A stretch of 32,000 nucleotides of DNA from the NCBI RefSeq assembly GCF_000020025.1, contig NC_010628.1, positions 5,850,001 through 5,882,000 of the forward strand. The letters run 5' to 3'. Numbering within the stretch: position 1 is the first letter of the stretch; the number at the start of each line of letters is the position of its first letter. Under the pieces are notes generated by a model. That model saw only the letters and a list, made by a program, of their open reading frames with translations. It did not search any database and was not told the DNA's origin. Origin of the DNA: Nostoc punctiforme PCC 73102. GTDB taxonomy: Bacteria > Cyanobacteriota > Cyanobacteriia > Cyanobacteriales > Nostocaceae. Position numbers and translations under genes: made by a program. This document shows positions 12,118 through 17,352 of this stretch, one piece after another.

Positions 12118-12723
12118 TTATAATTCACTATCCGTAAAGGAAACTATGGATGGTAAAAATCTTTGATGAGATGGAGAAAATTCTAATCTTGCTGCACAAT
12201 CATCTATTTGTGATACTTCTAATTCAATTGTTTGTTCATTTTCTTCATCAAAAACCAATTGAATTTGATAATTTGTCCAAAATTGTTCGCCTAGTTCATC
12301 TTCTAAAGCTAAAAGTAGTTCTTCTTCATCACCCCATATATTCGACCAAAGGACTATTCTATTAGCCCGAAAATGATTTTGACCTGTTGTATCTCCAATT
12401 ACAAAATATGCTTCGACCCTTAAATTAAATTCTAAATCATCGACCTCTGCATCTGTGATATTACAGTTAACTATTATTAAGCTATCTGGGTTAACGTTTA
12501 CTAACTCCTCTTGACGTTTTAATAATTCTTCAAATACGAAATTCGGCAATAACTGGGAACTCTCTTCAAGTACTTGCTTTTGAGTTTCTGGTGAATAACG
12601 AGTTTTTAATTCTTGGGTGATTAAATTTAAAATATCTTTACTTGCTACATTGGCAACTATCTTTTTATTTGCAGGGTTAAGGAAGCATCCTTGATTAAGC
12701 TCAATGCGCTTTTTTATTGTCAT
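12118..12723 (-). CDS. hypothetical strongly acidic protein (orphan)
   Basis: 201-aa ORF in AT-rich DNA. My hand count is 37 D+E versus 16 K+R. There is no TM segment and no motif I recognise. Confidence 0.55.
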   Translation of the reverse strand: MTIKKRIELNQGCFLNPANKKIVANVASKDILNLITQELKTRYSPETQKQVLEESSQLLPNFVFEELLKRQEELVNVNPDSLIIVNCNITDAEVDDLEFNLRVEAYFVIGDTTGQNHFRANRIVLWSNIWGDEEELLLALEDELGEQFWTNYQIQLVFDEENEQTIELEVSQIDDCAARLEFSPSHQRFLPSIVSFTDSEL

Positions 12724-12789: not shown

Positions 12790-13137
12790 TTTTAAGAAGT
12801 GCCGCAGCTTGTTTGATTAAAGCATTAGCATCAAAGCTATAGCCGACACAGGCATAAACCCCACCTTGTAGAACTTGTCTGATTGCTTCCTAAGTAAGTA
12901 AACCACTGGCGACATTTAGATCCAATACTAAGTAAGTGATAACATTGTAATTGAGCGAAAGTGAAAATGCGATCGCGCACAGATGCTAGTTATGTTGCGA
13001 TTTGGTATTTATAACGTTGGGTTGATGGTTACTAAAAGAATACTATGGTATTTTCCTGGTGCTATGGGAGCCAATACATAAACACGCATTAAACCGCCAT
13101 CTGTTGTTAACTCGACATTGCACTTAGTGATTTGCAC
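12790..13137 (-). pseudogene. decayed dienelactone-hydrolase-family gene remnant
   Basis: Reverse translation from GTG 13137 gives (M)QITKCNVELTTDGGLMRVYVLAPIAPGKYHSILLV, then a stop at 13009-13011. This resembles the DLH N-terminus (x-DG-x-M-x-AY-x-x-P-x-x-G-x-x-P-x-hydrophobic run). Downstream frames are broken by stops. The extent toward 12790 is approximate. Confidence 0.35.
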
Positions 13138-13320
13138 TTTTTTGACTCCGTGTTATGCTTGCTGTCATTAGAGCAGCCTACTGTCGCCAGGCATTTATCC
13201 GCATTTACAAAATACCCGAACTTTTTACAGCATCTGTTTACTTTCAATCCACAAATTGGTGTTTTTGTCCCATCAGTGCGATCGGTTAATATGCATAGTG
13301 AAAGTTTGTTACGATTATCT

Positions 13321-13350
13321 TAATATTTAATAAATAAGTATTAAATATTA
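13321..13350. promoter_or_regulatory. perfect 12-bp dyad (candidate operator) upstream of mcrB
   Basis: TAATATTTAATA (13321-13332), a 6-nt spacer AATAAG, then TATTAAATATTA (13339-13350), which is the exact reverse complement. The dyad ends 38 bp upstream of ATG 13388. AAATAAGTA also repeats directly at 13332-13340 and 13353-13361. Confidence 0.35.
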
Positions 13351-13387
13351 TAAAATAAGTAATTTGGCTATTTAGATCATCCATGAT

Positions 13388-14977
13388 ATGAATCAAAAAA
13401 ATATTCTTACTTGGGGTGATGTAGCTTACGCTTCCCGAATTGCGACTGGAGGCTCAAAGCAGGAATGGGAGGCTTTAGAACTGATTTGGCAAGCATGGGA
13501 AATAATAATCTACACCGGACTTGCAACTTATTCTAATAAACGTGAGCTTTTGCTAGTAGTTATAAGATTTTTTGCTATTGTAAGTTTTTACCTGGAATTT
13601 TTTAATGATTATTATTGGGAATACTATATTAATAATTACAGTAGAGAGTGGCTTAAAGGTATTCACATAATTCCCGATTACAATGAATATATAATCGACT
13701 GTGTAAATGGTTTATGCTGTCCTATACTGCCAAAATCCGAACCAAATAATCTACTTTTGTACTTTGTCGAGAATGCTTTACAGCAAGTAATGCAAGTACC
13801 GATGGATAGCCTAAATAGTGACTCAATGATATTTAAATCTGTATGGGAAATTAGTCACCAGCAGTTTCAATTAGATGGAGATATATATGAGTTGCAGAGA
13901 AGAGAAGCTGAACTAATTAGTGAGAGTATATTTTTGGATAAGATCATAAACTTAGCCGAAATACATGAGAATTATAATCAAAACAATGAATTTATTAGAG
14001 ATGAAGCTGCAATCATAGAAATATTTTTTGACGAAGATAATACAGACTTAGAATGGATGAAATGCACAAATCATATAGATTTTCAAAAATCTCAAGAAGT
14101 TATAGATGCTACTAATAAATTTATAGCTTTTTTTTCCTGTTATCAAATAAAGCCTAACTTTTCTCTGAAGCATTGTTCTGAAATAATTGGGTTTAATGAA
14201 ACAGATTTAAAACGGTGGATACGTACAATTAATCGCAAAAAACAAATAATTTTAAGCGGTTCACCTGGAACAGGAAAAACCTTTATTGCTAAACACCTTG
14301 CAGAACATTTAATAGGTGGTAGTGATGGCTTCTCAGAACTTCTGCAATTTCACCCCACATACTCTTATGAAGACTTTATTCAAGGTATACGTCCTCAAAG
14401 CCAAGATGGACAATTAACATACCCTTTGGTTCCAGGCCGTTTTCTAAAATTCTGCAAAGAAGCAGAGTACCATCAAGGAACTTGCGTTTTAATTATCGAT
14501 GAAATAAACCGTGCTAATCTCGCACAAGTTTTTGGCGAACTAATGTACTTACTTGAGTACCGAAATAGAGAAATTCCACTAGCTGGTGGTAACACCTTTC
14601 GCATTCCAGAAAATGTCCGCATTATTGGCACGATGAATACAGCAGATAGGTCTATTGCCAATATAGATCATGCGCTACGCCGCCGCTTTGCATTTATCGA
14701 ACTTCGTCCAAATTATGATGTCCTGCGACGTTATCACCAAAAAAGAGGTTTTGCAGTAGAAGGATTAATTAATATTTTACAGCAATTAAATCAGGCGATT
14801 GCAGATAAAAATTACGAAATTGGTATTTCATTCTTCTTAACAGACAACCTACGTGAAGATATGGATGATATATGGCCTATGGAAATTGAACCATATTTAG
14901 AAGAGTACTTTTTTAATCAGCTAGCAAAAGTAGATGAGTTTCGCTGGGATAAAATAAAAGATAAACTATGGATATAA
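13388..14977 (+). CDS. mcrB: McrB-like AAA+ GTPase subunit of a type IV (McrBC-type) restriction system, with an unrecognised N-terminal domain
   Basis: 529 aa. Walker A GSPGTGKT starts at aa 291 and Walker B is VLIIDEINRA. The McrB-type NxxD motif is GTMNTADRS. RRRF is present, as is HPTYSYEDFIQG, typical of McrB/GTPase-subunit homologues. Residues 1 to ~265 match nothing I know. Confidence 0.85.
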   Translation: MNQKNILTWGDVAYASRIATGGSKQEWEALELIWQAWEIIIYTGLATYSNKRELLLVVIRFFAIVSFYLEFFNDYYWEYYINNYSREWLKGIHIIPDYNEYIIDCVNGLCCPILPKSEPNNLLLYFVENALQQVMQVPMDSLNSDSMIFKSVWEISHQQFQLDGDIYELQRREAELISESIFLDKIINLAEIHENYNQNNEFIRDEAAIIEIFFDEDNTDLEWMKCTNHIDFQKSQEVIDATNKFIAFFSCYQIKPNFSLKHCSEIIGFNETDLKRWIRTINRKKQIILSGSPGTGKTFIAKHLAEHLIGGSDGFSELLQFHPTYSYEDFIQGIRPQSQDGQLTYPLVPGRFLKFCKEAEYHQGTCVLIIDEINRANLAQVFGELMYLLEYRNREIPLAGGNTFRIPENVRIIGTMNTADRSIANIDHALRRRFAFIELRPNYDVLRRYHQKRGFAVEGLINILQQLNQAIADKNYEIGISFFLTDNLREDMDDIWPMEIEPYLEEYFFNQLAKVDEFRWDKIKDKLWI

Positions 14978-15945
14978 ACCCAGCACAACCAAGAATTATT
15001 GAACTTACAGAATACGAAAATAAATCATTTCAACGTACCGAAATACCCGATTCAGCAGGAGTTGAGTTATATGAAAAATACAAAACCCAAGTAGATATAG
15101 AATTTCCTACCTATAAAACGAGAGAACATTGGAAACTCCAAGCAAAAGGATGGGTAGGTTACATTCCTGTAACTCATAAATTGCATATAAAAATAAATCC
15201 AAAAGTGCCGCTCCAAAACCTCTTCGGAATGCTGGAATATGCCTACAATTTTAAAGGTTTCCGCTTTCTCGAAGGTATGATGGATTGTAAATCCTTAGAG
15301 AATTTTTATAATAATCTGGCTCATATATTAGCCGATAAAGTTTTAGAGCGATGCCGCAAAGGATTATATCGTACTTACTTGCCCAAAACACAGCAGCTTT
15401 CTTTTGTACGGGGAAGGCTAGATGTGCAACAGCTAATTCAAAAGCCGTGGAATGTTAAACTTAAATGCGATTACGAAGAACATACGGCTGATATTAAAGA
15501 AAATCAAATCCTGGCATGGACACTTTATATCATTGGTCGTAGCAGCTTATGTTCAGAGAGAGTATCACCAACAGTACGAAAAGCCTATCATGCCCTACAA
15601 GGATTAGTAACGCTGCAACCTTGTAGCACAGAAGATTGTATTTTCAGACAGTATAATCGCCTTAATCCTGACTATGAACTATTACATAATTTATGTCGAT
15701 TCTTTTTAGAAAATAGTAGCCCCAGTCATGAGAGAGGAAATTACAAAACTCTACCTTTTCTCGTCGATATGGCACATTTATATGAACTTTTTGTTGCAGA
15801 ATGGCTTAATAAAAACATACCACAAGGCTATTTTATTAAACAGCAACATCCAATAGAAATTAGTCAGAATCGGCATTTCAGTATAGATATATTACTGTGT
15901 GATACCGATACTGGCAAAACAATAGCAGTTTTGGATACAAAGTAG
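14968..15945 (+). pseudogene. mcrC: McrC-like nuclease subunit, 5' part (325 codons), truncated by IS insertion
   Basis: The ATG overlaps the mcrB stop by 10 nt (ATGGATATAA). The McrC-like N-terminal region is WKLQAKGWVGYIPV...IKINPK. The fragment ends FSIDILLCDTDTGKTIAVLDTK, followed by a TAG supplied at the IS junction. Confidence 0.85.
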
Positions 15946-16946
15946 ACTTGTCGGGAAATAAGAGAGAATAGACAGCAGTGGTAGGGAAGAATGATGCTGA
16001 ATATTGAAGGTGCGCTGAAGCAAGACCGACTGTTGAGGGCATTAACTGGGTTGAACCGGAAAGCATTTGATGCCCTTTTGCCCACGTTTACCACGATGTA
16101 CCTAGATACTCAACAGGCCAAGCCTCGTCAACGTGGCCTGGGTGGAGGACGCAAAGCCCGCTTACTTACAGCCCAAGACAAATTGTTTTTCATCCTTTTC
16201 TATTTCAAATGTTATCCGACCTTCGATGTGGCGGGACTGCTCTTTGATATGCATCGCTCCCAGGCACATGAGTGGATGCATCGATTGCAGCCAATATTAG
16301 AAGCGGCTTTGGGACAGAAGATGGCGCTGCCGGAACGCCATCTCGAAAGCATTGAAGCATTTTTGTCACGCTTTCCAGGAGTGCAACGAGTGATGATTGA
16401 TGGGACAGAACGCCCAATTGCGCGACCTCAAGAAAGAGAACAACAACAACAGAATTACTCCGGTAAAAAGAAACGTCATACGCATAAACACTTGGCGGCA
16501 GTTGATGAAACCAAACGGGTCTTGATCTTAAGCAAAGCACGAGAAGGCAAACTGCATGACAAACGTTTTCATGACGAAGATGACATTGCAGGTAGTGTGC
16601 CTGATGAAATTCCGATTGAAGTAGACTCGGGCTTTCAGGGATTACAGAAGCAGTATGACAATCTCCATCTTCCTCACAAAAAGCCCAAAGGGGGCAAGTT
16701 AAGTGACCTTCAAAAAACGGAGAATCGTCAATTGAGTCAATCCCGTGTAGTTTGCGAAAATGCCTTTGCTGGTGTGAAGCGCTACAACGCCGCCAGTGTC
16801 ATTTATCGTAATCGGATTGAAAACTTTGATGACCATTTGATGCTGACCGCAGCAGGATTATGGAACTTCTACTTGATGGCTGCTTAAGAGAATCCCAATT
16901 ACAAGACCAGCATTGCCTCACTTATCTTTTATTTCCCGACAACTCT
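15944..16946 (+). mobile_element. IS5-family-like insertion sequence (DDE_Tnp_4/Harbinger-type), 1003 bp
   Basis: The left end is AGACTTGTCGGGAAATAAGAGAGAA. The reverse complement of the right end is AGAGTTGTCGGGAAATAAAAGATAA (22/25 match). AGT flanks both ends (15941-15943 and 16947-16949). Removing the IS plus one AGT copy restores an open mcrC frame. Confidence 0.85.
15991..16887 (+). CDS. IS5-like DDE transposase (N-terminal HTH plus DDE_Tnp_4-type core)
   Basis: 298 aa. The sequence MIDGTERPIARPQEREQQQQNYSGKKKRHTHK...SGFQGL...ENRQLSQSRVVCENAFAGVKRY is the pattern of the PIF/Harbinger-IS5 DDE superfamily. Confidence 0.8.
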   Translation: MMLNIEGALKQDRLLRALTGLNRKAFDALLPTFTTMYLDTQQAKPRQRGLGGGRKARLLTAQDKLFFILFYFKCYPTFDVAGLLFDMHRSQAHEWMHRLQPILEAALGQKMALPERHLESIEAFLSRFPGVQRVMIDGTERPIARPQEREQQQQNYSGKKKRHTHKHLAAVDETKRVLILSKAREGKLHDKRFHDEDDIAGSVPDEIPIEVDSGFQGLQKQYDNLHLPHKKPKGGKLSDLQKTENRQLSQSRVVCENAFAGVKRYNAASVIYRNRIENFDDHLMLTAAGLWNFYLMAA

Positions 16947-16948
16947 AG

Positions 16949-17176
16949 TATAAAGCTCCTGAACAGGCAGGAAATACAGATATTTATCAAATGATCAGCT
17001 ACGCCAACACAACAAAATGCGAACAAGCCTTTTTGATATACCCTAAAGACTTGACACACCCACTAAATATTAAAAGCGATCAAATCCGAGTCCGCAGCCT
17101 CACCTTTTCCCTAGATGATAATCTCGATCGCACAGGTCAAACCTTCTTAAAAAACCTTTTTCTCCTAATCCCTTAA
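16949..17176 (+). pseudogene. mcrC: McrC-like nuclease subunit, 3' part (75 codons) displaced by the IS
   Basis: This frame reads YKAPEQAGNTDIYQMISYANTTKCEQAFLIYPKD. It is the expected continuation of the PD-(D/E)xK core (DTK-YK ... YQ ... LIYP). It joins in frame to codon AAG 15940-15942. Confidence 0.8.
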
Positions 17177-17180
17177 AACT

Positions 17181-17352
17181 CACACCAATAAATTAGTAAA
17201 GGGGATAGATGACATTCGCTTGTGGCGAAGCACCCATCCCCGAATAGCTGCCCAGATCATAAACCTGGAATCTATAGTCCGGTATCTAATCATCCCAGTA
17301 TCGTTCGAGATATGTCGATTGTCACTGGGATAGATACTGATTTAGAACATAT
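17181..17352 (+). pseudogene. 3' remnant of a monomeric PheRS-like (PheS-family plus FDX-ACB) gene, frameshifted
   Basis: One frame reads HTNKLVKGIDDIRLWRSTHPRIAAQI, which resembles the PheS C-terminal DIRLF...RFLKQF. A second frame reads IYSPVSNHPSIVRDMSIVTGIDTDLEHIYEKI, which resembles the FDX-ACB start S-K-x-P-x-x-x-RD-hydrophobic-S/A. No N-terminal catalytic part is present. Confidence 0.4.

Follow-up and report, generated by a model that had tools for sequence, protein, structure and literature searches.

An McrBC locus of Nostoc punctiforme PCC 73102 with a previously unclassified, predicted all-alpha acidic domain at the N terminus of its McrB homologue

The mcrB homologue and its N-terminal module

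The 32,000-nucleotide (nt) stretch of Nostoc punctiforme PCC 73102 analyzed here (contig NC_010628.1, positions 5,850,001 to 5,882,000; hereafter the window) contains a two-gene mcrBC operon, which belongs to the classical NxxD branch and, as indicated by comparison with related genomes, occupies a conserved chromosomal site within a clade of Nostoc. The system is recognized from its sequence as an McrBC with a previously unclassified input domain, a member of a small defence-associated family, and its identity and anatomy can be assigned with high confidence. A preliminary description, made from the letters of this DNA, had already singled out the N-terminal region of the McrB homologue and proposed that it matches no known modification-reader fold. 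The gene and the elements of its GTPase half are located as follows, with positions counted from the start of the window and residues (aa) from the start of the protein.

13388-14977 (+): mcrB homologue, 529 aa, consisting of a predicted acidic all-alpha N-terminal module and an McrB-type AAA+ GTPase (open reading frame (ORF) call, Pfam, NCBIfam)
14144-14977 (+): McrB GTPase module, aa 253-529 (motifs, Pfam and NCBIfam model matches)
14258-14281 (+): Walker A motif GSPGTGKT, aa 291-298
14489-14515 (+): Walker B motif LIIDEINRA, aa 368-376
14633-14650 (+): MNxxDR signature MNTADR (NxxD), aa 416-421
14678-14689 (+): RRRF, aa 431-434

All four motifs from which the C-terminal half had been described as an McrB GTPase (GSPGTGKT, DEINRA, NTAD of the NxxD type, and RRRF) are present, and the model matches agree with this assignment, with Pfam AAA_5 covering aa 287-434 (E 4e-22) and the NCBIfam McrB model covering aa 269-516 (E 2e-47). 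The protein has the Walker A motif, the Walker B motif with its DE pair, the MNxxDR signature replacing sensor I, and the Arg finger of McrB-family AAA+ GTPases, and the neighbouring gene codes for an McrC partner (PF10117, 130.6 bits), which accompanies mcrB in all 13 related loci. The NCBIfam equivalog NF008457 aligns to the GTPase part alone and scores 161.8 bits, far under its cut-off of 637, indicating an McrB-family protein and not an orthologue of Escherichia coli McrB. No ORF of at least 60 aa is present on the opposite strand under 13388-14180.

The N-terminal module comprises a constant and a hypervariable part.

13388-13975 (+): core of the unclassified acidic helical domain, aa 1-196, isoelectric point (pI) 4.5, net charge -14 (hidden Markov model family, HHalign, AlphaFold2)
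13388-13612 (+): constant sub-region, aa 1-75, helices 1-3, predicted local distance difference test score (pLDDT) 84-92 (identity among Nostoc orthologues, conserved columns)
13613-14212 (+): hypervariable region, approximately aa 76-275, running from the second half of the domain through the acidic linker into the beginning of the GTPase lead-in

The preliminary description had extended this module to nt 14180; a distinct module is indeed present, but it ends at about nt 14143, the GTPase starting at about residue 253. The acidic linker (aa 197-252) is poorly conserved, almost free of constraint, and leads into the GTPase, and the whole head, aa 1-252, carries a net charge of -22. Residues 1-265 are, as described earlier, encoded by the most AT-rich DNA of the window, with the minimum GC content over 756 nt (0.294) at 13501-14256. 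The sequence elements quoted for this region were all located, namely an aromatic run FYLEFFNDYYWEYYINNY at aa 67-84, a hydrophobic run LLLVVIRFFAIVSFYL at aa 54-69, the string CVNGLCCP at aa 105-112, and an acidic helical stretch at aa 163-186 and 210-223. The Cys cluster has no signal across the family: its cysteines vary even among Nostoc orthologues, and a metal-binding role was rejected on this ground. The hydrophobic stretch is present and conserved as the third helix of the domain, but it does not represent a conserved membrane segment, and its hydrophobicity signal is not family-wide. A membrane segment at aa 54-72 was rejected, since hydrophobicity varies between 0.8 and 2.2 among family members and the helix, with the consensus VVIRFxALxxFYxEF, has a conserved Arg and a conserved Glu embedded in it; it is probably a buried core helix. 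An Rx4-6H motif of the HEPN type following R60 is not present in the inspected alignments. The residues kept family-wide within aa 1-75 are W9, W37, Y48, R60, F61, and E70, and at the column of aa 32, where the family has a near-invariant Trp, the window protein has Leu.

AlphaFold2, provided with 16 diverse sequences, predicts an all-alpha fold of eight helices (pLDDT 71.9, predicted template modelling score 0.66), confident to about residue 140; this model superseded an earlier one computed from 4 near-identical sequences (pLDDT 38). Window aa 1-265 had no match in Pfam, PADLOC or NCBIfam. Likewise, neither the window protein nor any of 16 diverse family members matched DUF3578/MrcB_N, YTH, EVE, ASCH, SRA or B3 in Pfam at E<=1, and searches of Pfam and PHROGs with all 16 members brought no significant similarity for the domain. 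The best E-value in a profile search of PDB sequences with the head was 0.5, and Foldseek searches with the pLDDT-72 model reached an E-value of about 1 with TM<=0.27 against PDB and 0.28 against BFVD. Taken by class of reader, the DUF3578/ADAM methylcytosine reader gave no Pfam match for aa 1-265 or any of the 16 members at E<=1; the PUA-like readers (YTH, EVE, ASCH, SRA) gave neither a profile match nor a PDB Foldseek match, the AlphaFold2 model being all-alpha and having no beta-barrel; and the B3-type N-terminal domain of LlaJI.R1 was not matched in Pfam, PDB sequences or Foldseek. The DNA mimics ArdA and Ocr, for which Pfam showed no match in the 16 members, have acidity alone in common with the domain. 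These searches bear out the proposal of a head different from the known modification readers: none of the described N-terminal readers of McrB was matched with confidence, and the predicted fold is all-alpha, compared to the beta-rich folds of those readers. A literature search found no description of this acidic helical domain and nothing useful linking DUF2461 or effector-associated domains to McrB.

The domain in Nostoc and other bacteria

A scan of one genome per species revealed 13 related loci in other Nostoc genomes. The fused ORF is intact in 10 of them, being 527-548 aa long and having the same MNQKNIL start; one of these is the 529-aa protein of Nostoc sp. UCD121 (L012). The nearest homologues in the first search were "hypothetical proteins" of 218-256 aa, ending exactly where the GTPase should start. 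This raised the possibility that the region represents a gene of its own, lying upstream and erroneously joined to mcrB, which was rejected, since the short copies are T-tract frameshifts and 10 of 13 species have an unbroken fused ORF. The three short Nostoc copies result from single-base slips in T runs, which shorten T7 to T6 at nt 636 (L010, L013) and T8 to T7 at nt 740 (Nostoc sp. NMS9). The slip at nt 636, which corresponds approximately to window positions 14024-14029, where most orthologues have T7, truncates McrB at about 218-220 aa; the mcrB copy of strain NMS9 is degraded further. Inactivation of mcrB at T-runs has occurred repeatedly and independently, and the comparison of these loci indicates that the fusion of head and McrB is ancestral in this Nostoc clade.

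Nei-Gojobori estimates of the ratio of nonsynonymous to synonymous substitution rates (dN/dS) are 0.25-0.63 for aa 1-196, 0.45-1.6 for the linker (aa 197-252), and 0.15-0.30 for the GTPase. The head is under purifying selection, and this pattern identifies it as a constrained coding region of the same gene as the GTPase. Conservation along the head is uneven. Identity to the window protein over aa 1-75 is 81-100% in nine of the ten intact orthologues and 64% in the remaining one (L018), while in the four most divergent orthologues (L015-L018) identity over aa 76-252 falls to 14-50% and that of the GTPase is 78-92%. The mean number of distinct residues per column is 2.6-3.3 in approximately aa 76-275 versus 1.2-1.6 in the GTPase. 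For some pairs (the window versus L015-L017) synonymous divergence is higher in the head (13388-13975, about 0.53) than in the GTPase (14144-14977, about 0.31), which suggests recombinational exchange of head alleles. In L006 and L009 the acidic linker is longer by 16-19 residues, aligned to about aa 212-214 of the window protein and made of the repeat units EDNTDFFYEDDTDFFYKDNTD, similar to (F)YEDNTD. Such an arrangement, in which a hypervariable cassette follows a constant anchor, would be expected of a specificity or sensing module.

Beyond Nostoc, an exhaustive hmmsearch with the Nostoc N-terminal profile against 1.84 billion cluster representatives recovered 20 clusters at E<=1e-3, including 9 at E<=1e-10, with library-wide E-values from 1e-25 to 9e-4 outside the window's own cluster. 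HHalign comparison of the Nostoc heads with the stand-alone members gave a probability of 98.8% (E 4e-17, 149 columns). The similarity extends over about 150-190 aa and includes W9, W37, Y48, R60/F61, E70, and an LFxSLW segment. The family core comprises about 190 aa and has a pI near 4.4; of 14 tabulated members, 13 have a pI of 4.0-4.7 and a net charge of -11 to -37. The conserved columns of the family alignment include 2 basic, 14 acidic, and 12 aromatic ones; W37 and Y48 are invariant, and the two basic columns are R60 and an Arg that is Leu131 in the window protein. Five architectures were found.

(a) McrB GTPase preceded by the head, 497-565 aa
(b) Head followed by a middle region that weakly matches DUF2461 and then by the McrB GTPase, 777-818 aa
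(c) As (b), on a different AAA_5 lineage, 811 aa, in Aerosakkonemataceae, followed by a DUF2357/PDDEXK_7 McrC-type gene
(d) Stand-alone domain, 184-202 aa, ending in AFEWIxxGC
(e) Zeta-toxin-like P-loop protein with the domain at its C terminus

Two McrB lineages carry the domain, each with its own McrC-type partner. The McrB-fused forms are found in cyanobacteria, where they are annotated merely as "McrB family protein," and the named sources of the family are Nostoc, another cyanobacterial family, and one metagenome-assembled genome of Planctomycetota. With its intact fusion in 10 of 13 Nostoc species, purifying selection, and presence at the head of two McrB lineages, the region is not a fused remnant of an unrelated gene, the other outcome that would have gone against the preliminary description. 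In the middle region (about aa 245-480) of the long proteins P0014, P0017, P0009, P0015, and P0016, the first 45 or so residues match DUF2461 with E-values from 5e-5 to 4e-3; this region may be the nucleic-acid-binding part of the long McrB forms.

The stand-alone copies are encoded next to various defence genes. One is located between an HsdMSR system with an HD_4 gene and GmrSD, another is divergent from an HsdM-HsdS-Abi_C-Mrr-HsdR cluster, another lies within an element with integrase and DnaB genes, three times such a copy is divergent from a small Xre regulator, and once a copy is followed by genes for a 1695-aa DEAD/MZB helicase and an SNF2 helicase resembling DISARM. The Zeta-like fusion is directly followed by an HD_4 gene. 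A hydrolase of the HD_4 (RelA/SpoT-type HD) family adjoins the domain in two unrelated contexts (L004, 5359-6555; L024, 351-2048), preceding the stand-alone copy in one and following the Zeta-toxin-like fusion in the other, and HD_4 and the domain may form a separate small system. The recurrent combination of a stand-alone copy with a divergent small Xre-type helix-turn-helix gene (L020, L021, L023, L026) resembles a regulator-controlled cassette or a toxin-antitoxin-like pair. Scans of viral contigs with the window domain and P0023, which reach close relatives only, found nothing. Overall, sequence similarity and gene context indicate that the domain is portable among defence-type effectors and that the family is rare, unannotated, strongly acidic, and predicted to be all-alpha, and takes the place of the usual DNA reader of McrB.

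State of the mcrBC copy in this strain and its surroundings

The features around and downstream of the head-GTPase junction, together with the region upstream of mcrB, are listed below.

14128-14135 (+): T8 homopolymer, codons F248-F249-S250, at the junction of head and GTPase (sequence)
14968-15945 (+): 5' part of mcrC, 325 codons, overlapping the end of mcrB by 10 nt (PF10117, tblastn)
15945-16946 (+): insertion sequence (IS), about 1002 bp (Pfam, repeats, contiguity in relatives)
15991-16887 (+): DDE_Tnp_4/HTH_Tnp_4 transposase ORF of the IS (Pfam)
16947-17209 (+): displaced 3' part of mcrC, last 87 or so codons (tblastn)
13039-13387 (+): upstream non-coding region, shared by conservation with the other Nostoc loci, left edge of synteny, presumed promoter region (blastn)

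The mcrC gene is split at codon 325 by the 1002-bp IS, and its 5' part, matched by profile positions 1-277 of the 318 of PF10117, stops at an IS-created TAG directly after D-T-K of the nuclease motif. In a tblastn search with the intact 412-aa McrC of strain NMS9, aa 1-325 match the 5' part and aa 326-412 match 16949-17209 with 85% identity. The IS is bounded by 14-bp inverted repeats (15948-15961 and 16929-16942), with AGTA duplicated at both ends, and has a GC content of 0.46 versus 0.36 in mcrC; each of the 13 related Nostoc loci has an mcrC that runs uninterrupted across the insertion point.

The reading frame of mcrB hinges on the length of the T8 tract. In the window it is in frame, whereas three independent short-read assemblies, otherwise identical to the window over 2837, 1202, and 976 nt, read T9, which splits mcrB into ORFs of 256 aa and 183 aa exactly at the boundary of head and GTPase. 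One of these assemblies extends into the same IS junction. The same tract is T7 in Nostoc sp. NMS9. The conflict between T8 and T9 may mean that one assembly is wrong or that tract length varies in the population through homopolymer slippage. Because of the IS in mcrC and the dependence of the mcrB frame on this tract, McrBC is probably inactive in this strain.

To the right of mcrC, the region beginning with an FGGY kinase gene is syntenic with other Nostoc genomes. On the left, blastn alignments begin at 13033-13039 in 11 of the 13 loci, while the contig of L012 starts later and the alignment of L018 starts at 13386. A scan for promoter consensus sequences upstream of mcrB performed no better than on shuffled sequences, the promoter role of this region being presumed. 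Farther upstream, an acidic ORF of 201 aa (12118-12723, minus strand) is divergent from mcrB, very AT-rich (GC 0.32), and absent from all 13 related loci. It has no match in Pfam, NCBIfam or PADLOC, and was rejected as a second copy of the domain (HHalign probability 0.3%).

Possible function of the head and comparison with known systems

To our knowledge, every McrBC system that has been studied is directed to its target by a DNA-binding module, which is either N-terminal or acts in trans. The acidic, hypervariable head, predicted to be all-alpha, suggests that some McrBC systems could be aimed or switched otherwise than by direct base reading. Direct reading of duplex DNA by the head is unlikely because of the near absence of conserved basic residues and its consistently high acidity, and the earlier impression that it does not look like a DNA-base reader gains support from this acidity, the two basic columns, and the fold predicted by AlphaFold2. 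Since conserved basic residues are few and conserved acidic and aromatic ones are many, a contact with protein is proposed. The head would be the input module of the McrBC machine, acting without direct reading of DNA bases. Its variable half could bind a fast-evolving, probably basic partner, such as a protein of phage origin, one associated with DNA, or a specificity factor with a gene of its own, and binding of this partner would license or direct the McrB hexamer, which is driven by GTP, together with the PD-(D/E)xK nuclease McrC. The same domain, when attached to other effectors or encoded alone in defence islands, could have the same sensor or adaptor role. As a whole this is the best explanation, although confidence in it stays somewhat below an even chance, and the protein-contact mechanism within it is put forward tentatively. 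A more specific version is rather doubtful: the acidic head may turn McrBC into a protein-triggered nuclease, its hypervariable half recognizing a basic DNA-associated phage protein or acting as a DNA-like decoy, and may be a sensor common to Type I restriction-modification, GmrSD, DISARM-like, and kinase/HD effectors in other phyla.

Several points weigh against the protein-contact proposal. Positive selection is not demonstrated, dN/dS being below 1 overall; the number of loci that provide the defence-island contexts is only about eight; besides mcrB and mcrC nothing is conserved in the Nostoc locus, and no partner protein was identified there; the model of the head is moderately confident and weak beyond residue 140. 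In addition, W9, W37, Y48, W77, W153, and the near-invariant Trp of column 32 could just as well enclose a modified base in an aromatic cage.

This last point leads to the main rival, in which the head is a new fold for reading DNA or modified bases, with a Trp/Tyr pocket and a hypervariable half that tunes specificity like target-recognition domains, the system being an ordinary modification-dependent Type IV enzyme whose head is new. Every characterised McrB binds DNA through its N-terminal domain, whether this is of the DUF3578, YTH, or B3 type (PMC7680126) or of the EVE superfamily (PMC11090510). The twelve conserved aromatic columns, with W37 and Y48 invariant, and the resemblance of a variable cassette flanked by constant parts to a specificity module are consistent with such a reader. 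However, the family is strongly acidic and has two conserved basic columns, its predicted all-alpha fold is unlike that of known readers, and the domain also occurs alone and on a kinase-like P-loop protein, where a DNA reader is less expected; moreover, in the long McrB forms the DUF2461-like domain between head and GTPase could bind DNA. A base-reading head is possible but rather improbable.

Auto-inhibition and homotypic pairing are less likely. The first assigns a regulatory, auto-inhibitory, or assembly role to the domain: the acidic head and linker would serve as an intramolecular DNA mimic or lid until a signal arrives, and DNA would be met by the GTPase ring or McrC. The strong negative charge of domain and linker (-22 over aa 1-252), the expansion of acidic linker repeats in L006 and L009, and the location of stand-alone copies next to DNA-binding enzymes such as Type I restriction-modification and GmrSD agree with this role. 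An inhibitor, however, should evolve in step with the conserved GTPase and not be hypervariable, and the absence of Pfam ArdA/Ocr matches in the 16 members also makes this role unlikely.

According to the second, McrB would use its copy of the domain to pair with another copy, carried by a protein encoded elsewhere, and thereby recruit an extra effector. Effector-associated domains of conflict systems in multicellular bacteria follow an analogous logic. Besides occurring alone, the domain is attached to NTPases and to an effector-like Zeta/P-loop protein; it is predicted to be all-alpha; and its McrB-fused forms belong to cyanobacteria, all of which would suit an adaptor. On the other hand, no second copy is known in the Nostoc locus or the 32-kb window (the 201-aa ORF is unrelated, and the whole window was not scanned for one), the genome scan, run with narrow patterns, gave one locus per genome, and no Pfam family of effector-associated domains was matched, so that homotypic pairing has a small chance of being correct.

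That the head is a decaying, non-functional AT-rich leftover joined to mcrB, as its AT content, the IS in mcrC, and the T-tract frameshifts in L010, L011, L013, and three assemblies of this strain might suggest, is largely refuted and highly improbable given the intact ORF in 10 of 13 species, the dN/dS of 0.25-0.63, the conservation of aa 1-75 at the level of the GTPase in all orthologues but L018, and the homologues in other cyanobacterial families and other phyla.

If the protein-triggered reading is true, it would define a new family of input domains for anti-phage systems. Since the domain recurs next to several unrelated restriction and defence systems, a single biochemical characterisation could annotate the domain family across cyanobacteria, Planctomycetota, and many metagenomic lineages. 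The gain is modest in that the N-terminal diversity of McrB is already known to be large and is partly classified, the mechanism is inferred, and this copy is probably dead. A census of McrBC systems contains no mention of cyanobacteria or DUF2461 and leaves fused specificity domains for later classification (PMC11090510).

Among systems with separate or acidic modules, the three-gene relatives LlaI and BsuMI bind DNA in trans through an R1 subunit docking on the AAA+ motor (bioRxiv 10.64898/2026.08.31.748284). They provide a precedent for a separate specificity subunit, which fits the adaptor reading, but the Nostoc locus has no R1-like gene, and its additional module, fused to the GTPase, is not known to bind DNA. 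ArdA and Ocr are likewise highly acidic proteins of small to medium size that occur around restriction systems, a resemblance of composition only. CoCoNuT (CnuBC) GTPases are characterized by an NxD signature and long coiled coils (PMC11090510). They share with the Nostoc protein an McrB-like GTPase, a helical non-EVE N-terminal region, and a proposed target other than DNA; unlike them, the Nostoc protein has NxxD (MNTADR) and a compact helical head, and so is not a CnuB.

Known McrB heads include DUF3578/ADAM for 5-methylcytosine, YTH for N6-methyladenine, and B3 for site-specific binding (PMC7680126), with EVE-superfamily domains as a further type (PMC11090510). The McrB of T. gammatolerans, with its YTH domain for N6-methyladenine, and LlaJI.R1 of H. 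pylori, with its site-specific B3 domain, both of them homologues with solved N-terminal readers (PMC7680126), resemble the Nostoc system in design: motor and nuclease are conserved, the N-terminal module is exchangeable, and the linker diverges. Their modules, however, are DNA-binding folds, to which the Nostoc head has no sequence or Foldseek similarity, and its charge is wrong for DNA. The modification-dependent Type IV system McrBC of E. coli K-12 has the same organization as the Nostoc locus, with mcrB located upstream of an overlapping mcrC, an AAA+ GTPase carrying Walker A and B motifs, MNxxDR, and the Arg finger, and an McrC with PF10117 and the D...DxK nuclease motif, and it differs in that its DUF3578/ADAM methylcytosine reader is replaced in Nostoc by an acidic domain predicted to be all-alpha.

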